Positions 3,948 to 23,716 of a stretch of DNA of 29,829 nt are shown one piece after another. A model generated the notes under the pieces. It made no database searches. It was not told the origin of the DNA and worked only from the letters and a program-made list of their open reading frames with translations. The position numbers and the translations under genes are program-made. Every line of letters begins with the position of its first letter. Positions within the stretch are counted from its first letter, which is position 1. Origin of the DNA: a virus (lineage: Duplodnaviria; Caudoviricetes); the IMG/VR virus record IMGVR_UViG_3300020044_002202, positions 1-29,829 of that record, one strand, 5' to 3'.

Positions 3948-4166
3948 ATGTCATTGATTTTTAAGATTATGGTAGCATCGTTGGTAGCTAATAGACCAAT
4001 TGTGCCGCCTCCTCCTAAACGAGGTAGGCCACCAAAAACAATACACGACATTGATCTTTCCAAAGTCGATGAGGTAATCCATGACGCAAAAAAACTTGAT
4101 GATGGTATGCGAGGCCAAACTGGTTCTCGAAAAGGCAGGAAGCGCAGAGCCAACGGGCAATATTGA
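3948..4166 (+). CDS. Small basic protein with AT-hook-like KRGRPPK motif
   Basis: ATG directly follows the portal stop and the ORF fills the portal-protease gap. It overlaps the protease by 86 nt. Confidence 0.5.
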   Translation: MSLIFKIMVASLVANRPIVPPPPKRGRPPKTIHDIDLSKVDEVIHDAKKLDDGMRGQTGSRKGRKRRANGQY

Positions 4167-4884
4167 AGCCGTTATTACGACTTGGGGGCCGCGCGAAGGT
4201 GCTGATGGTCGCAAGTTCAACTATCAACCAGAGGCATTTATGCAATGGGCCGAAGATTTCAGCAAAGCTGGTCGTCCTCTCCCAATGTTTGTGAACCATG
4301 ATGCTGATTCCATTCCCGTGGGTGAATGGACATCATTTGAGTTTGACGATACTGGCATGAAAGCCTGCGGTCGTTTATATGTCAACACCACTCAAGGCTC
4401 TGACTTGTATCAAGTGATGAGCGAGTCGCCAAATATGTTTGGTGGCGTATCTGTTGGCGCATACGCCGAAGAATATCAATGGACAAAAGAAGACGGCACT
4501 CCAATGACCGTTGGTTCTGATGACCCATACGAAGATGGCTACTTCCAAATCACCAAAGGTGGTCTGCGTGAAGTTTCAGTCGTTATGTACCCTAACAACC
4601 CAATGGCAGAAGTGCAAAAGCTAGAGTTTTTCCGCGCTGATGGTTCTGCCGATTTGAAGATTTTGGAACAAGCCCTTCGTGAAGTTGGTCTATCCAAGAA
4701 AGATGCGGTCGCTGCCGCATCTACATTCAAGAAAGTGATTGAGCAACGTGATGTTGTTCAAAAGCCTATTGAAAATGCGACGAATCAGAGCGATTCTGGT
4801 GCGGAAGCGACCGAAGCGGAAATTCTCGCTGCTCTTGAGCAACGTGAACTCCTTAAACTCCTCGACAAACGCCTGAAAGGTTAA
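4081..4884 (+). CDS. Prohead maturation protease, HK97 family (S78)
   Basis: LPMFVNHD (His), GVSVG (Ser), LREVSVVMYPNNP. RBS GAGG at 4071. Lies between portal and capsid. Confidence 0.93.
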   Translation: MTQKNLMMVCEAKLVLEKAGSAEPTGNIEAVITTWGPREGADGRKFNYQPEAFMQWAEDFSKAGRPLPMFVNHDADSIPVGEWTSFEFDDTGMKACGRLYVNTTQGSDLYQVMSESPNMFGGVSVGAYAEEYQWTKEDGTPMTVGSDDPYEDGYFQITKGGLREVSVVMYPNNPMAEVQKLEFFRADGSADLKILEQALREVGLSKKDAVAAASTFKKVIEQRDVVQKPIENATNQSDSGAEATEAEILAALEQRELLKLLDKRLKG

Positions 4885-4886
4885 TC

Positions 4887-6230
4887 ATGTCTCAAGTCAT
4901 TCTCGACAAATTGGATGCCATCGAAGCTAAACAAGCTGAGAGCATCGTGGCTGTTGAAGCCAAAATCCCCGCTGCCGTTGAAGCTGTTAAAGCTGAAATG
5001 AGCGAAATGGTTGCTGCTTTGGAAGCCAAAGTTGCTGCTATTCCTGCTGCCGCAGTTCACAAAGAAAAAGCCAAGTCAGTTCGCGCTGATGTGAACCGTT
5101 CTGTCAAAGAACAGCTCAAGGCAATCGCTGACGGTAAGAATTCTTTTGAGAAGCAACTGCAAGTTTTTGCAGACGAATCTCAAATGGAAGCCTACATGAA
5201 AGAAGCCTCGGCTCTGACAGGTGGCGGTAACGGTCAAGGTGGTCGTACTGCTTATGACCCTGTGTTCGTTGCTCTGCGTTTGGCTAACCCAATGCGCGGC
5301 GTGTCTCGCACTGTGGCTACTGATGGTTCTAGCTATCAATTCCGTGTCAAGACTGGCAATGCTGGTGCTGCATGGGGTTACGCAATCCAGAACAACGGTT
5401 CGGCAACAACTGAAAACACTTCAATCTGGCAATTGGTTTTGCAAGACTTGAACGTGCAGTTCCCAATCCGTACTGCTGCTCTTGACGACATCGACGGTTT
5501 GGAAGCAAACGTGGTTGACGATATGTTGGCTGAATTCGCTCAAGCCGAAGCTCTGTCAATGATTCAAAACAACGACCAAGGCGCTACCAGCTTGCCATAT
5601 GGCGGCTCTAACGGCTTGCGCGGTTTGAACCAATACGCTGGCGCTAACGCAACTTACACTGGCGGCACAACTTCTGTTGCAGCTTTCGGTACAAGCGGCA
5701 CTGGCTCTACAAGCGGTTTGCATAGCTTGGCTACTTATGACCAGTTGACAACAAACGGTAACACTGTTGGCGCAGCTAACATCACTTACAAAGACGTTGT
5801 GAACTTCATCTACGCCTTGCCACAACAATACTGGACTGAGAGCGCCAAGTTCATCGTCAGCCCTGTCTTGTTGGCTCAAATCCGTGGCTTGACAGACGAC
5901 AACGGCACTCCTGTGTTCGAGCGTATGTCTCCTCTGGAAACCAACGGTATCGTTGGTCGCTTGTTGGGCTTTGATGTGGTTGTGAACAAGTATTTGGACA
6001 CTCCATCTCAAACCACAACCGGTTCTGCTGGCACAACTAGCCTGTACCCAATGTACTTCGGTGACTGGTCTCGCGGCCACACCATTGTTGACCGTTTGAA
6101 CATGGTTATGCGTCGCTACGACCAGACAGCCCCCGGCTACATCACCTTCTTCGGTGAGAAGCGTTTGGCTACATCGGTGCGTGACCCTAACGCTATCGTG
6201 CGTTATCGCTCAACTGGCACTGCAACCTGA
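4887..6230 (+). CDS. Major capsid protein 1, HK97 fold with ~105-aa helical delta domain
   Basis: Coiled-coil-like N-terminus, LRLANPMR, GRLLGFDVVVN, YFGDW, FFGEKR. Follows the protease. Confidence 0.93.
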   Translation: MSQVILDKLDAIEAKQAESIVAVEAKIPAAVEAVKAEMSEMVAALEAKVAAIPAAAVHKEKAKSVRADVNRSVKEQLKAIADGKNSFEKQLQVFADESQMEAYMKEASALTGGGNGQGGRTAYDPVFVALRLANPMRGVSRTVATDGSSYQFRVKTGNAGAAWGYAIQNNGSATTENTSIWQLVLQDLNVQFPIRTAALDDIDGLEANVVDDMLAEFAQAEALSMIQNNDQGATSLPYGGSNGLRGLNQYAGANATYTGGTTSVAAFGTSGTGSTSGLHSLATYDQLTTNGNTVGAANITYKDVVNFIYALPQQYWTESAKFIVSPVLLAQIRGLTDDNGTPVFERMSPLETNGIVGRLLGFDVVVNKYLDTPSQTTTGSAGTTSLYPMYFGDWSRGHTIVDRLNMVMRRYDQTAPGYITFFGEKRLATSVRDPNAIVRYRSTGTAT

Positions 6231-6241
6231 TAGTTGCCTTG

Positions 6242-6268
6242 GATGGGGGCTTCGGCTCCCATCTTTTT
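6242..6268 (+). terminator. Rho-independent terminator between the capsid paralogues
   Basis: GATGGGGGC-TTCG-GCTCCCATC forms a 9-bp stem (one G-U) with a cUUCGg loop, followed by TTTTT. Confidence 0.85.
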
Positions 6269-6287
6269 AACTCTCATTGGAATAAAT

Positions 6288-7304
6288 ATGACCATCACCG
6301 AAAAAATCCTGAACGGCATCAAGCAAGCCATCCACGAAGGTACGAAAGTTACCATTGACCTGAAAGAAGCCTCTGGAATCACTGGTTCTGGTTCGGGTGT
6401 TGGTGGTAATGTTGTATTTGATGACTCGTTTGCCGCTTTGCGTCAAGCAAACCCATTGCGTCAAGGCTCTCGCCAAATTACTGTGGCTGGTTCTGACGCT
6501 CAGTTCGTTGCCAAGACTGGTAACGCAGCAAACTCTACTAACCCTTGGGGTTACACATTCACTCCTAACAGTGGTTCACCCAATGTTAGTACCTCGATTT
6601 GGCAATTGCCAGTTCGAGTTTTGGTTGCTCAATTGCCAATCCGTACCGCAGTGCTGTCGGATGTAAATGCTCTTGAATCTTCGATTGTTTCTGACTTGGC
6701 GCTGGAATTCGCACAGTTAGAGGGACAATCAATGGTGCTGAATAATGACCAAGCTGGTTCTTTGACAACTTCCACCGGTGCAACAAACGGTTTGCGTGGT
6801 TTGGACTCTTATGTGTCGGCATCTGCCAGTGCATTTGGTTCATCTGGTACTGCCATCACCAACGGTATTCACTCGATTGCTACCGTGTCTTTGGGTGGCT
6901 CTCCTGTGACCTACAACAAGATTGTTGACATGGCATCGACTCTGCCAGCTCAGTATTGGGCGCTGCCTACAACTGCATGGCATATTCACCCTGACATGAT
7001 TCTCATGTTGCGTGAATTGAAAGACACACAAGGTCTGCCATTGTTCTTGGAAGTTGGTGATTCTGATGGCGCTTCTGTTGGTCGCATCTTTGGTTTCCCT
7101 GTGGTTCCAAACCCATTCCTCTCATCTGCATTTCCAATCTATCTTGCCAACTGGTCTAATTTCTTGACCATCGGTGATTCAGAGCAAATGAATGTTCAAA
7201 TGTTTGAGCAAACAGCCCCCGGCTTCATCACTATGTATGCTGAAAAGCGTATTGTTAGCTCTGTGCGCTCACCTTTCGCTGGTGTTCGCATGAGCGCAGC
7301 CTAA
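6288..7304 (+). CDS. Capsid protein 2, paralogue of MCP1 lacking most of the delta domain
   Basis: Shares KEAS.(L/I)TG, ALR.ANP.R, KTGNA, TSIWQL, Q.PIRTA.L.D, NNDQ, NGLRGL, LP.QYW, QTAPG.IT...EKR with 4887..6230. Confidence 0.9.
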   Translation: MTITEKILNGIKQAIHEGTKVTIDLKEASGITGSGSGVGGNVVFDDSFAALRQANPLRQGSRQITVAGSDAQFVAKTGNAANSTNPWGYTFTPNSGSPNVSTSIWQLPVRVLVAQLPIRTAVLSDVNALESSIVSDLALEFAQLEGQSMVLNNDQAGSLTTSTGATNGLRGLDSYVSASASAFGSSGTAITNGIHSIATVSLGGSPVTYNKIVDMASTLPAQYWALPTTAWHIHPDMILMLRELKDTQGLPLFLEVGDSDGASVGRIFGFPVVPNPFLSSAFPIYLANWSNFLTIGDSEQMNVQMFEQTAPGFITMYAEKRIVSSVRSPFAGVRMSAA

Positions 7305-7314
7305 GAGGTAAATA

Positions 7315-7986
7315 ATGTCCGCTGATGCACAACTCGGTTACTTGAATTACGGTGCGCCAACGCGCAATCCGTTCAATTATGCAAAGACAGAGCAAATCGG
7401 TCGTGACATTTCTACCGCTTGGTTGTCTTTGGAGGAAATCACCAATCAATTAAACCTGTTTGGTGATGACAGTCAAAACACATATCTTTCAAGTCTTGAG
7501 TTGGCCGTTCGCATGGCAATTGAAGACTTCTTAGGTCTATCAATTTTTGCGACTTCATATCGTGTCTGGTACAACTCTGCCAGCCTGTATGGAACTCCAT
7601 TGTCTTTGGATTTGCCAGAAGTTAGCCAGAACACAGACCCCTTGTTGTCTGGCGTGACTGTGGACGCAGTGAGATATTGGAATGACAACAGCCCTCCTGA
7701 GTTAATCACTTTGGCGGCAGATCAGTATTACTACGACCCATCTGGCAACAAGGTTGTGATTGCGAATTTGCCAACGAATTTGAATAGTTCGATGACTTCG
7801 CCTGTGATTTGCGAGTACACGACAGCAGCAAACCCCTTGGCTGATTACCCTGTAATCAAACAGGCTGGTTTGCTGTTGTTTACTCACCTTTACAACAATC
7901 GTAGCGATACGACTGATAACAAGTTGCAATCAATCCCGTTTGGTGTGCAAACTTTGCTTCGTCCATATAAGCCGCTTGTCATGTGA
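7315..7986 (+). CDS. Head-tail connector/adaptor (HK97 gp6/SPP1 gp15-like, long form)
   Basis: LSLEEI..QL, IKQAGLLLFTHLYNNR, IPFGVQTLLRPYK. Position after the capsid genes. Confidence 0.85.
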   Translation: MSADAQLGYLNYGAPTRNPFNYAKTEQIGRDISTAWLSLEEITNQLNLFGDDSQNTYLSSLELAVRMAIEDFLGLSIFATSYRVWYNSASLYGTPLSLDLPEVSQNTDPLLSGVTVDAVRYWNDNSPPELITLAADQYYYDPSGNKVVIANLPTNLNSSMTSPVICEYTTAANPLADYPVIKQAGLLLFTHLYNNRSDTTDNKLQSIPFGVQTLLRPYKPLVM

Positions 7987-7996
7987 GGTGATGTAA

Positions 7997-8341
7997 ATGG
8001 CAATTGCACGTTTTGAGAATATCACTGTCAATTCTTTGTCCTTTGGGCAAAGTTCATTTGGTGAACAATCAACTACGATAACAAAGTGGTTTGATACTCG
8101 TGCGCGTGTTCATTCTGTGGCAAACCATGTAAAGATTTCTGAGAAATATCGGGTGTATTCTGACCTTGTGAATTTCACATTGAATTACACGCCTAATACA
8201 GAAACAATCATTAACAGCCAAAACCTTTACTCAATCACTTGGAAAGGTGTTGATTGGAGGATTGATAATGTCCGTGAAGCTGATGATCGTATGACGGTTC
8301 AACTTCTATGTGTTCGTAATGATCCTGTGGTGGCTGTGTAA
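7997..8341 (+). CDS. Head closure / head-tail joining protein (SPP1 gp16-like)
   Basis: 114 aa. SSFGEQ...W, ITWKGVDWRIDNV...LLC pattern. Synteny. Confidence 0.75.
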   Translation: MAIARFENITVNSLSFGQSSFGEQSTTITKWFDTRARVHSVANHVKISEKYRVYSDLVNFTLNYTPNTETIINSQNLYSITWKGVDWRIDNVREADDRMTVQLLCVRNDPVVAV

Positions 8342-8757
8342 TGGCTCAAAATAACCCAGTTCAATACGGTAAAGCAATTCAGTATCAGTTGTCACAGATA
8401 GTGACCCCTGTGCCTGTTTATGCGGCTTTTAACCGTAATTTTGCAACACAGCCTAAGTTCATTACTTGGCATTTGCGAAATGTGCATCAACCTGTTTATA
8501 CGGGTCAAAATCAGAATAACAAAGGTATTGATACTCCTGTTTTTCAGATTTCCATCTTCACTCAACAGATAGAAGATGGTTTCACAATTTCCAATCAGAT
8601 ATTACAATCTCTCCACGGTTATAGTGGTTTGTTTGGCGGTTCAACAGATGGTTTTTGGGTTTCCAAGGCTGATGTTCAATGGCTTTATAACTCTTATAAC
8701 AATGATGAAAAGTTGGCTCAAGTTTTCCTAGATTGCACTCTGGATATTCCAACTTAA
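8341..8757 (+). CDS. Tail terminator/completion protein
   Basis: 138 aa. PKFITW, FQISIF...ILQSLHG pattern. Immediately precedes the tail tube genes. Confidence 0.65.
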   Translation: MAQNNPVQYGKAIQYQLSQIVTPVPVYAAFNRNFATQPKFITWHLRNVHQPVYTGQNQNNKGIDTPVFQISIFTQQIEDGFTISNQILQSLHGYSGLFGGSTDGFWVSKADVQWLYNSYNNDEKLAQVFLDCTLDIPT

Positions 8758-8795
8758 TACAGCACAAGACTCGTTCAACTTTTTAAGGAATCATC

Positions 8796-9290
8796 ATGGC
8801 TTTACCAAACAAAGTGCTACCCGGATTTAGTGCGGCAATGTATGCCCAACCCGGCGCAACCCCAACTCCTCTGACTCTTTCTCAATTGTCAACCTTGGCA
8901 AGCACTTCTGCTATTGCTGTTTCTGGCAACTTGTTGAACGTAGAAGCTATCCCTGCTTTTGGTCAAGATGATGCTGTTGCTTCATTTACCGTTGCTGGCT
9001 CGCGTCAATCTGACAAAATCCCAACTCAGTCAGCTCCAACTAGCATGACTATCACTGCTGCTTGGAATCCAAGCGATACAGTGTTGTTGCAAGTTCGTGC
9101 TGATGCTTATTCTGGCGTTACAGATCGCACTTATGTGATTTCTGCAACTGATGGCGCAAACATCATTTATTACGCTTTCAATGGTCGTGCTTCTCAATTC
9201 CAAATTGATTCGGCTCCCGGCGCAGAAGCCAAGGCAACTTTCACCATTCATCCCCGTGGCAACCTGTACGGTTGGTCTAACAACGCTTAA
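8796..9290 (+). CDS. Tail tube protein, paralogue 1
   Basis: Size, synteny and beta-rich tube-like pattern (TITAAWNPSD, YAFNGR, FTI.PRG). RBS AAGGA. Confidence 0.75.
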   Translation: MALPNKVLPGFSAAMYAQPGATPTPLTLSQLSTLASTSAIAVSGNLLNVEAIPAFGQDDAVASFTVAGSRQSDKIPTQSAPTSMTITAAWNPSDTVLLQVRADAYSGVTDRTYVISATDGANIIYYAFNGRASQFQIDSAPGAEAKATFTIHPRGNLYGWSNNA

Positions 9291-9302
9291 AGAGGAATTA
9301 TC

Positions 9303-9821
9303 ATGGCTGCACCTAACGTAGTTTTACCCGGCTTTGCCGCCTCGATGTGGATGCAAACCACAGCGACACCAACTCCTTTGTCAACTGCTAATTTGGCAGT
9401 TTGGACAGGGCAAGTGGCTACCATCGTTGGCACTTCTGCTAACGGCACTGGTGCTGCTGGTACTGCCTTGAATGTGGAGACTGTTCCTGCTTTCGGTCAA
9501 GATGACGCTGTGGCTTCTTTTGCTGTTGCTGGTTCGCGTCAATCTGACAAAATCCCAACTCAATCTGCTCCTACTAGCTTAACCATTACAGCGGCATGGA
9601 ATCCATCTGATGCGGCTCTTTTGTTGATTCGTGGCGATGCTTATTCTGGTACTGTTGATCGCACCTTCGTTGTGGCTGCTGTGGCTGGCACTACTACCGT
9701 TGCCTATGCTTTTAATGGTCGCGTGAGTCAATTTACGATTGATTCGGCTCCCGGCTCTGAAGCAAAATGCACTTTCACAATTCATCCACGAGGAAACCAG
9801 TTTGGCTGGTCGAACACCTAA
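9303..9821 (+). CDS. Tail tube protein, paralogue 2
   Basis: 40 of 42 residues identical to paralogue 1 over PAFGQDD...AAWNPSD and colinear throughout. RBS AGAGGA. Confidence 0.75.
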   Translation: MAAPNVVLPGFAASMWMQTTATPTPLSTANLAVWTGQVATIVGTSANGTGAAGTALNVETVPAFGQDDAVASFAVAGSRQSDKIPTQSAPTSLTITAAWNPSDAALLLIRGDAYSGTVDRTFVVAAVAGTTTVAYAFNGRVSQFTIDSAPGSEAKCTFTIHPRGNQFGWSNT

Positions 9822-10021
9822 TGAGTGACCAACTTGCAGCGGCAATAGAGGCTTTGGCCTCTACCTATCAATCCCTTGACTTGATTGCTCAAGGGATGGT
9901 TGTCGATGCCCAAGAAGTCTCGGATGCCTTGGCAAAAGCTGATGCTGATACCGCAGAGTTCATTGCTCTGACTGCTTTGGCAAAATTCAATCCCTATACT
10001 CCACCTGTAAAATCAAAATAA
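9821..10021 (+). CDS. Hypothetical protein (66 aa)
   Basis: TAATG overlap with the upstream stop. Ala-rich helical sequence MSDQLAAAIEALAS. Confidence 0.7.
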   Translation: MSDQLAAAIEALASTYQSLDLIAQGMVVDAQEVSDALAKADADTAEFIALTALAKFNPYTPPVKSK

Positions 10022-10256: not shown

Positions 10257-10814
10257 ATGTCTGGCATTACTTTCCAAATTAAAGGTTTGAAAGATGCTTT
10301 AGCCGTATTTGAAGAACTTGCTTTGGAAATAGGCGATAAAAAAGCCACCAGCAAAATTCTTGTCCCTGCGGCAAGAGAGGCAATTCAGCCTGTTTTAAAT
10401 ACGGCCCAAATGAATGCCCCTGTTGATACTGGAGGCTTACGCTTGTCACTTCAAGTTGAAGCAAGACGCCCAACTCGTAAAGACAAACGATCAAAATACG
10501 TCAATGATTCTGATACAGTAATTGCATCTGTTACCACGGCATCTGGCAAAAAACTTGCAAAGATGAGTGAAGGCGCTGGCTTGGCGGCTGCTAAAAGAAA
10601 ACTTGGTAAGATGGGGAATAAAGAGCAAGCTCAGAATTTTTCGGGCATCAAAAGTGATGCTCGTGCAATTGCTCAAGAATTTGGTTCTGCTCATAATGGA
10701 GCGCAACCTTATTTGCGTCCGGCAATGGAGGCAAACTCTCAGGCAGTAGCCAATAAACTTGGTGAAATTATTGGAAGACGTATAGACCAATTCCGGTCAA
10801 AAAATACAAAATAA
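10257..10814 (+). CDS. HK97 gp10-like neck/tail completion protein
   Basis: IKGLKD, NAPVDTGGLRLSL, AQEFGSAHNGAQPYLRPA. Confidence 0.85.
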   Translation: MSGITFQIKGLKDALAVFEELALEIGDKKATSKILVPAAREAIQPVLNTAQMNAPVDTGGLRLSLQVEARRPTRKDKRSKYVNDSDTVIASVTTASGKKLAKMSEGAGLAAAKRKLGKMGNKEQAQNFSGIKSDARAIAQEFGSAHNGAQPYLRPAMEANSQAVANKLGEIIGRRIDQFRSKNTK

Positions 10815-10823
10815 GGAAAACAC

Positions 10824-11312
10824 ATGACAAAATTAGCTTCTGTCTTAGGTTCTAAATATGAGAGCAAACGAAAACAGCTTTTCATTCGTACATTTGACCT
10901 TGGAGGCCATACTTTCCGAGTCAAAGTTCCAACCGTGTCTGAATCTGACGCAATGTATCAGCGCATCAATAATCCAGATGAACAAAAAATTGATGAAGTT
11001 TACAAAGCAATTATTGAGCCACTTCAACAATATAAAAATCAAACTGATCTACATTCAGAATTTGAATTTCTTGAAGATGATGTTTTAATCGGTGGTCGTT
11101 CTATTAAAGAAACCGCCAAAACAAAAGTAATGACTCAAAATCGTATCGTTGAGTTTATTAAACTTTTGATTCCAGAAGATGAAGCAAGTTCTTTGGAGGA
11201 TTTGACTTATGAAGACGTAGAAGCAGAATGGCCTATGTCAGTTCAAATGGCTTTGTTGGAAAAGATCGCCGAAGCTGTATCTCCTAACTACAAGGAATCT
11301 CGGGGAAACTAA
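10824..11312 (+). CDS. Tail assembly chaperone (gpG-like)
   Basis: Lies upstream of the tape measure gene and ends in the slippery heptamer G GGA AAC. Confidence 0.75.
   Translation: MTKLASVLGSKYESKRKQLFIRTFDLGGHTFRVKVPTVSESDAMYQRINNPDEQKIDEVYKAIIEPLQQYKNQTDLHSEFEFLEDDVLIGGRSIKETAKTKVMTQNRIVEFIKLLIPEDEASSLEDLTYEDVEAEWPMSVQMALLEKIAEAVSPNYKESRGN
11303..11309 (+). other. Programmed -1 ribosomal frameshift site GGGAAAC
   Basis: X XXY YYZ heptamer in the correct phase just before the TAA. The -1 frame is open (LIGSLRKQVEI...) to 11674. Confidence 0.85.
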
Positions 11313-11674
11313 TTGGCTCGTTGAGAAAACAAGTTGAGATCGCCATGATTTTCAACGGGCATACACATGACACATTGGCTGATATTGATGATGTAACCAT
11401 GCTTCAAATCCAGACAATGTACGCTGATGGCGTGATTGGGAATCGTGGAGTTTTAGAGGTTTTGGGGGCATTGACAAGTGGAGTGTTTAATTACATTCGA
11501 CCAGCAAATTCTCCTGCATATAAACTAGCCAACATTTTGGGAAGTGCGTATGATTACATCTATCCCCCTGCTACTCCAGAGCAGCAAAAAGAGGCGGTAA
11601 ACAACAGTTTGTTGGCGTTTATGAGTCAAGCCCCCGGCTTTGAAAAAGACAGATTTGAGGTAAAAAATGGCTAA
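11309..11674 (+). CDS. Tail assembly chaperone frameshift extension (gpT-like)
   Basis: In the -1 frame relative to 10824..11312, with no obvious RBS or ATG start of its own at the 5' end. Confidence 0.75.
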   Translation, partial: LIGSLRKQVEIAMIFNGHTHDTLADIDDVTMLQIQTMYADGVIGNRGVLEVLGALTSGVFNYIRPANSPAYKLANILGSAYDYIYPPATPEQQKEAVNNSLLAFMSQAPGFEKDRFEVKNG

Positions 11675-23126: not shown

Positions 23127-23681
23127 TTACTCAATGAGGCTTGCCCAACGCTTGCCTTTTTGAATTAAGTAAATCGTTGATGGGTTGACATCTGCAATGA
23201 TTGACAACGAATTTGCTGAAACGCCCTTTTCAAGAGCTTTTCTGATGTGAATGACTTGCTTTGCAGATAGTTTGTGATTTGGCTGTTTCTCTCCTGTCAA
23301 ATCATTTAATCCAGTTTCTCTTGCGTGTTTGTTATTGTCGGATAGAGTCATCCACTCTAGGTTCTCTGGCCTATTGTCTGTCTTTACCCCGTTAATATGA
23401 TTTACGCAAAGATGAGACTCATACCCATCAACAAAAGCTCTTGCTATAAGTCTGTGAACGGCAACTTTTGGTCGCTTGTCGCCAATTTTTGCGGAAACAT
23501 ACATATAGCCGTTTCTATCAAGACATTGAGACATCTTTTTTTCTTTGACATTTTTCTTAAATTCTTGAGTTACGCCTTTTCTGACTCGCGTTGTTTTGCT
23601 TACAAATGCGGCCCTGTAAATAGAGCCATCATTGCAAACAATCCAATCAGCGCCTTTTTCGGAGATGTGTACTTTAATCAT
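23127..23681 (-). CDS. HNH homing endonuclease (HNH_3 type) with C-terminal HTH
   Basis: VHRLIARAF...VNHINGVKTDNRPENLEW...N..H, and a C-terminal KLSAKQV..IR...VNPSTIYLI...W. Confidence 0.9.
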   Translation of the reverse strand: MIKVHISEKGADWIVCNDGSIYRAAFVSKTTRVRKGVTQEFKKNVKEKKMSQCLDRNGYMYVSAKIGDKRPKVAVHRLIARAFVDGYESHLCVNHINGVKTDNRPENLEWMTLSDNNKHARETGLNDLTGEKQPNHKLSAKQVIHIRKALEKGVSANSLSIIADVNPSTIYLIQKGKRWASLIE

Positions 23682-23687
23682 GTCAGT

Positions 23688-23696
23688 ATTGTAGCA
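23688..23696 (-). promoter_or_regulatory. Extended -10 promoter for the HNH gene
   Basis: TG-c-TACAAT on the minus strand, 6 nt upstream of ATG 23681. Confidence 0.5.
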
Positions 23697-23716
23697 TGAC
23701 ACAGATAGGATACAAA

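Follow-up and report, generated by a model that had tools for sequence, protein, structure and literature searches.

Few tailed phages are described as having one protein for the hexons and another for the pentons, and the need for such a split in a small phage has been called unclear (PMC13595954, discussion). One such case is the Mycobacterium abscessus siphophage Jabs, in which a downstream, leaderless paralogue of the major capsid protein (MCP) with a small A-domain, MCPp, forms 11 pentons (10.64898/2026.07.24.740622), and another is Lactococcus phage Nocturne116, where an adjacent paralogue without a scaffold forms the pentons, an arrangement proposed for all c2-like phages (PMC13595954). 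T4 gp24 is cited as a vertex protein in the same paper (PMC13595954). In the tail, the major tail protein is duplicated in actinophages of clusters AU, AM, BI, DJ and CC (10.1101/2020.01.10.891226), and the tube of SPP1 is a mixed one, with gp17.1 and gp17.1* present at 3:1 and one of the two forms dispensable (PMC8718954). The virus record IMGVR_UViG_3300020044_002202 (IMG/VR; 29,829 bases, 79% complete, the whole of which is called the window below) has both kinds of duplication, with two capsid genes (MCP1 and MCP2) and two tail tube genes (types a and b), and it is these two pairs that are considered here.

The best explanation overall, with a probability of about 0.6, is that the window holds two independent duplications in one structural operon, a hexon/penton split in the head and an optional, co-assembling pair in the tail tube. 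A first-pass annotation had described the capsid and tube genes as diverged intact pairs beside single-copy portal, protease, connectors and tape measure, and so they are found to be: there are two open reading frames (ORFs) of the HK97 capsid family and two of the tube family phrog_158, with one gene each for portal, protease, gp6-type adaptor, head closure, gp10-type protein and tape measure (30 + 30 ORFs scanned). The duplications are real and selected but separate from each other, the first being a likely hexon/penton split that runs through a large clade and the second optional and apparently co-evolving.

The capsid pair

The capsid genes and their neighbouring features are as follows.

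4887..6230, forward strand: MCP1, an HK97-type major capsid protein of 447 residues (PF05065/phrog_10), with a helical scaffold (delta) leader of about 105 residues that ends at an invariant E106-A-S; it has the strongest codon bias of the module
6241..6270, forward strand: intrinsic-terminator-like hairpin and T run between the capsid genes (z -3.4)
6288..7304, forward strand: MCP2, an HK97-fold paralogue of 338 residues (PF05065/phrog_10), with a leader of 27 residues that ends at an invariant E27-A-S, and with shorter A-domain loops
4081..4884, forward strand: prohead maturation protease of the S78 type, single copy (PF04586, phrog_80)

MCP1 and MCP2 are 39% identical over 354 columns (E 3e-67). 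The start of MCP2 is placed at ATG 6288, downstream of the hairpin, because the TTG at 6234 given by the ORF finder would read through the terminator hairpin and because the top homologues are 338 residues long. The predicted helical leader of MCP1 extends to about residue 109, and the short leader of MCP2 corresponds to the last part of the delta region in MCP1, the two proteins aligning from the EAS motif onward. This motif is invariant in the alignments of 43 MCP1 and 40 MCP2 sequences, and its position at the border of leader and shell suggests that it would be the protease cut site; the motif resembles the L/I-x-E cut rule of T4. When lengths were scored by sequence pattern, which was possible for 100 of 146 pairs, all 100 had a longer leader in MCP1 (104-112 residues vs 19-35) and a shorter mature protein in MCP2 (median 312 vs 341). 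The length differences between the two lie in three loops, two of which flank predicted A-domain elements, and MCP2 has a conserved A-domain motif of its own in the alignment of 40 sequences. The predicted structures of both copies match HK97-fold capsids, the best match being the capsid of the Rhodobacter gene transfer agent (RcGTA), with a predicted local distance difference test score (pLDDT) of 72 for MCP2 and 59 for MCP1, and the MCP2 model matches the RcGTA, D3 and HK97 capsids with E values of 1e-13 to 1e-16.

Among 50,697 GenBank phages MCP1 and the tube protein each have a sole match, in both cases Methylophilaceae phage P19250A, a siphovirus that infects freshwater LD28 bacteria (10.1101/2020.04.27.064238). 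It shares the gene order (KX815270), with gp5 63% identical to MCP1, gp6 59% identical to MCP2 and a hairpin between them, gp6 being annotated as hypothetical in the GenBank record. Further relatives were chosen by two portal-anchored searches, with the portal of the window and that of P19250A, which avoids selection on the duplicates; each kept the best 80 of about 600 matches scanned, so that near relatives of the two portals are over-represented among the resulting 160 rows. Rows too short to span the region were dropped, and "distinct" refers to different DNA, not to species. MCP1 followed by MCP2 is found in all 101 distinct portal-anchored stretches that span the protease to gp6, and the pair is present in 142 of 142 loci when every locus fetched up to and including the P19250A-portal search is counted. 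A further 31 in-clade loci lie outside these counts, and inspection by eye shows both capsid genes in those that cover the region, one of them with two tube genes. Neither the capsid nor the tube pair is an assembly artefact, as each turns up in numerous separate contigs.

Distant long and short capsid forms were obtained by a profile search against 1.84 billion representatives, and a quick tree built from 53 rows places all 25 of the short ones on one side of a branch with a Shimodaira-Hasegawa approximate likelihood ratio test (SH-aLRT) support of 100, which therefore points to a single old duplication. A single-MCP outgroup locus was sought from three of the distant proteins, of which P0134 gave only unrelated local matches of 31-32%, P0128 none and P0138 only in-clade loci. 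Ratios of nonsynonymous to synonymous substitution (dN/dS) were taken as pairwise Nei-Gojobori (NG86) medians over pairs with dS of 0.05-1.5, using at most 45 sequences per gene, the pairs not being independent. The medians are 0.148 for MCP1, 0.116 for MCP2 and 0.061 for the portal, and for the tube genes 0.117 (a in doubles), 0.093 (b in doubles) and about 0.12 (singles). None of the four duplicated genes looks relaxed and all are under purifying selection (0.09-0.15), in agreement with the earlier impression that the duplications look selected. No matching of MCP1 with MCP2 within genomes was seen (0.431 for the own genome vs 0.428).

Several side observations concern MCP2. In locus L083 (5881-6900) MCP1 is 96% identical to that of the window and MCP2 only 63%, and therefore MCP2 alleles appear to have been swapped between near-identical MCP1 backgrounds. 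Locus L125 has an ORF of about 95 residues and no known identity (5800-6184) inserted between the terminator and MCP2, and P0122, an MCP2-type protein, has a sequence like it fused to its N-terminus. Five distant proteins of the MCP2 clade (P0129, P0131, P0133, P0135 and P0123) have insertions of about 70 residues that follow the spine helix or lie within the E-loop, with no Pfam match, and it is possible that these are vertex decorations.

Of 65 distinct junctions downstream of MCP1, 62 have a terminator-like hairpin, with a stem that varies in sequence, while similar hairpins follow eight other genes in only 0-3 of 32-85. The share of codons ending in C is larger for MCP1 than for MCP2 in 52 of 66 loci, the values for the window being 0.80 and 0.55. 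The conservation, the terminator and the lower codon bias suggest that MCP2 is an essential minor shell protein. RNA runs contained only contigs of relatives, in small shares, which is too little to rank the genes.

The described pairs suggest where such a minor protein may sit. In Jabs, an icosahedral siphophage, MCPh (ORF72) and MCPp (ORF73) are likewise adjacent with the long gene first, MCPh loses an N-terminal maturation domain that MCPp is without, and MCPp's axial domain is smaller by way of shorter loops (10.64898/2026.07.24.740622). The Jabs proteins are however only 18% identical, against 39% here, and form a T=9 shell with a disulfide network; MCPp is described without a cleaved leader, whereas MCP2 still has one of 27 residues with the EAS motif, and the penton role has been shown for MCPp and is putative for MCP2. 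The MCP (ORF18) and vertex protein (VP, ORF19) of Nocturne116 are similar in that the paralogue is adjacent and downstream, is clade-wide, has no scaffold domain and has a shortened A-domain tip loop, but they differ in the prolate head, the 24% identity, the protease fused to the MCP, and a VP described as without the N-arm and much of the E-loop, both of which MCP2 keeps (PMC13595954). T4 gp23 and gp24 are also a homologous HK97-fold pair with the second protein pentameric, although T4 is a large prolate myophage. Ccm of SaPIbov5, which works with the phi12 capsid protein, forms pentamers and its delta domain is cleaved and shorter than that of its partner (87 residues vs 128), but is encoded by a satellite and redirects head size (PMC8569155). 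The "vertex protein" of phiCbK was considered as a precedent and rejected, as it is processed MCP.

MCP2 has two of the marks of a dedicated penton or vertex protein, being an HK97-fold homologue of the phage's own MCP that is encoded directly after it and is without the scaffold/delta domain, but not the nearly absent N-arm and shortened E-loop of the narrower Nocturne116/c2-like VP family. By analogy it is likely that MCP2 works like a VP without being a member of that family. MCP1 would then build the hexons and MCP2 the pentons, a role that is judged rather probable, with the site decided by precedent. MCP1 would be made in bulk and supply the built-in scaffold, whilst read-through of the terminator would give a smaller amount of MCP2 (55 subunits vs about 360 if T=7, the value for genomes of about 38 kb). 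The single protease would cut both leaders after a shared (L/M/I/V)-x-E motif, and the compact A-domain of MCP2 would pack at the five-fold axis in 11 pentons.

A number of points weigh against this. MCP2 retains the N-arm and its E-loop region is 3 residues longer, unlike the Nocturne116 VP; fold searches give one and the same top match for both copies, and the MCP1 model, at pLDDT 59, is poor. The A-domain loops of MCP2 are shorter than those of MCP1, but the nearest long-form outgroup proteins (P0134 and P0176) are equally short there, and because of this the loops are probably gains in MCP1 rather than losses in MCP2, which makes a reduced A-domain weaker evidence. Codon bias in MCP2 is not below that of MCP1 in 14 of the 66 loci, and many phages have a terminator behind their main capsid gene, which indicates only that MCP2 is minor.

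The strict conservation, low inferred expression and retained short leader would fit any essential minor site, and the kept N-arm and E-loop would also suit a subunit at the five positions round the portal, or one mixed into capsomers with no homopentamer. Such a site is nevertheless unlikely, as all four second shell proteins of HK97 fold compared here, whether solved or cited (those of Jabs, Nocturne116 and T4, and Ccm), are described as pentamer-specific and MCP2 carries its own A-domain motif. The first-pass annotation had offered either one particle with specialised subunits or alternative particle forms, and the former is the best reading for each pair. For the latter, MCP2 would change the size or shape of the head, so that small transducing heads, or both prolate and isometric ones, are made, as Ccm, an MCP homologue that alters capsid shape, does for phi12 (PMC8569155), and the nearest solved relative of both copies is indeed the capsid of a gene transfer agent. 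Yet neither a separate promoter-like feature nor a switch was seen, MCP2 is in the operon of every member, and portal, protease and tape measure are each single; Ccm moreover acts as a penton, so that its mechanism is partly the same as that proposed for MCP2. With nothing found in the window or its relatives to favour alternative forms, a switch of this kind is quite improbable.

The tail tube pair

Downstream of the head genes lie the two tube genes and a small ORF that overlaps the second.

8796..9290, forward strand: tail tube protein type a, 164 residues (phrog_158, E 5e-7)
9303..9821, forward strand: tail tube protein type b, 172 residues, with about 9 extra residues near position 35 (phrog_158, E 3e-6)
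9821..10021, forward strand: acidic ORF of 66 residues that overlaps the type b stop (TAATG), for which Atlas and Pfam searches gave no family

The two tube proteins are 66% identical and have no internal stops, and the second scores 0.95-0.96 in the Atlas to tail tube clusters of the lambda type (PF16460/PF16461). Both family and position, between the terminator gene and the tail chaperone and tape measure, are those of a lambda-type siphophage tube, and no PDB sequence match was found for the tube protein. In a quick tree of 141 rows types a and c each form one side of a supported branch (SH-aLRT 99 for a), with b between them. The 79 distinct portal-anchored stretches that span the region comprise 22 doubles and 57 singles, the latter being 29 of type a, 9 of type b and 19 of the third type, c. 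Doubles are always a then b, and the first copy of L046 falls in the a clade. P19250A has a single tube gene, gp10, that is 68% identical to type a, and does not have the 66-residue ORF. On the MCP1 tree (105 rows) the copy number requires 15 changes, at least 10 of them forced by well-supported branches. Tail length was tried as a reason for having two tube genes, but the tape-measure medians of 669 residues (ab, n=22), 598 (a, 21), 666 (b, 3) and 789 (c, 20) show no pattern.

Where both genes are present they appear to change together, in part of their length. The tube alignment was split into five segments before the results were seen, and across 14 representative doubles the identity of a with b is higher within than between genomes for segments 48-92 (0.94 vs 0.88) and 128-164 (0.88 vs 0.79). 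Segment 25-48 is type-specific in all doubles (a-b 0.28, a-a 0.63, b-b 0.68). For segments 48-92 and 128-164 the closest b is the genome's own in 12 of 14, as against 3 of 14 for the rest, and when pairings of 13 representatives were shuffled the observed 0.912 was reached in none of 20000 shuffles, whose mean was 0.843. Recent gene conversion was rejected as the cause, there being no excess at silent sites: these are not homogenised, as only 21 of 54 minority residues common to both copies have one codon in common and four-fold sites give 0.37 vs 0.35, and two shared serines use AGT vs TCN codons. Identical DNA runs of up to 25 nucleotides do occur between the copies in a few genomes. From general fold knowledge, residues 128-164 are presumed to lie in the lumen sheet and 25-48 outside. 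Residues of about 53-80 align colinearly, if weakly (E 0.096), with residues 50-78 of lambda gpV, the beta2-beta3 loop, which makes ring-to-ring contacts (PMC8718954).

It may be supposed that types a and b each suffice alone, and that when both are kept the segments for ring stacking and for the lumen remain matched and the outer faces distinct, so that the tube would have two kinds of surface; on the matched segments, co-assembly of a and b in one mixed tube is somewhat favoured. Two tube genes in one siphophage are also found in actinophages of the cluster AU type, but there the copies are fixed, and in Giantsbane non-adjacent (genes 18 and 23), whilst here they are tandem and optional with matched core segments (10.1101/2020.01.10.891226). 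SPP1 likewise builds its tube from two subunit forms, although these are produced by a frameshift, which adds an FN3 domain, with no added domain here (PMC8718954). The 66-residue ORF is found in 68 of the 85 loci that have a type a tube gene and in none of the 39 that do not, and binding of the tube by its product is putative. Its reading as a frameshift extension of the tube protein is not favoured, as it has its own ATG, offset from the tube stop by -4, -1 or +2 depending on the locus. In one double-tube locus (L147, 4301-4519) a homologue lies upstream of terL and not after the tube genes.

Against co-assembly it must be said that a slight excess within genomes is present in the remaining segments too (149 of 20000), that the mapping rests on the weak alignment to gpV, and that the matching would look no different if it came from gene conversion long ago, with silent sites since saturated, or from co-evolution with a partner common to both. 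For the tube question alone, it is thus credible, if not the favoured view, that the copies are redundant (dosage) or that one is only a terminal ring, with the matching due to occasional conversion or to a shared chaperone or tape-measure partner; each type does occur alone (29 a-only and 9 b-only of 79), and the identical DNA runs would fit. This sits less well with the distinct residues 25-48 in all doubles, the fixed order of a then b, the silent sites and the two serines. The first-pass annotation proposed that both duplications belong to a single two-component virion architecture. In the window each pair is indeed intact and under selection, and 46 of 124 distinct loci have both, but the other 78 (57 of the 79 portal-anchored) have two capsid genes and one tube gene, as does the cultured P19250A, and L002, whose capsid proteins share 96% and 97% identity with those of the window, has one c-type tube gene. 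With the capsid pair in 101 of 101 stretches, the tube pair in 22 of 79 and at least 10 switches on the MCP1 tree, the survey of co-occurrence finds the duplications independently distributed; an obligate coupled system is refuted, and a coupled design of any kind is most improbable. Nor does the idea of an undescribed system stand, as both kinds of duplication have the published precedents discussed above (Jabs, Nocturne116, T4 and SaPIbov5 Ccm for the capsid, cluster AU actinophages for the tube).

Genome setting and significance

Family scans of the ORFs show an operon of the HK97/lambda-like siphophage type, running from terminase, homing endonuclease, portal, S78 protease, the two capsid genes, gp6-type adaptor and head closure through a 138-residue gene without assignment in the terminator position, the two tube genes and two small ORFs to a gp10-type gene, two genes at the tail-chaperone position, tape measure and tail tip. 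The head module is HK97-type, with TerL (PF03354), portal (PF04860), S78 protease, a PF05065 capsid with delta leader and gp6/gp10-type connectors. The gp10-type gene stands before the two chaperone-position genes in some loci, as in the window (10257-11674), and after them in others (L002, L006, L026 and more). Homing/HNH endonuclease genes lie at 1843-2556, between terL and portal, and at 23127-23702, near the lysis genes; the first insert is absent from P19250A and most other relatives, some of which have inserts elsewhere in the module. Positions 1-327 are a 91% inverted copy of a stretch within terL (1194-1520) in place of the terminase N-terminus, probably a contig-end chimera. Genome-bin matches number eight, with mixed labels and several on short contigs, and do not show the host of this phage.

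No publication reporting the capsid or the tube pair of this clade was found among the matches listed in literature searches, which did not include the original P19250A paper. Taken together, and tentatively, an abundant freshwater siphophage clade may assign hexons and pentons to two capsid proteins that are still close relatives (39-43% identical, less diverged than any other such pair compared), with inserted modules of about 70 residues in some penton lineages, and with a two-subunit tube in a subset, in which ring contacts would co-evolve, outer faces differ and one face be bound by the 66-residue protein. The clade is large, an estimated 900 or so IMG/VR stretches bearing its portal, it has a cultured member, and its capsid pair can be aligned residue by residue, which would allow a direct test of how quasi-equivalence divides after duplication, whilst the optional tube pair offers natural one-gene and two-gene controls on the purpose of a mixed tail tube.

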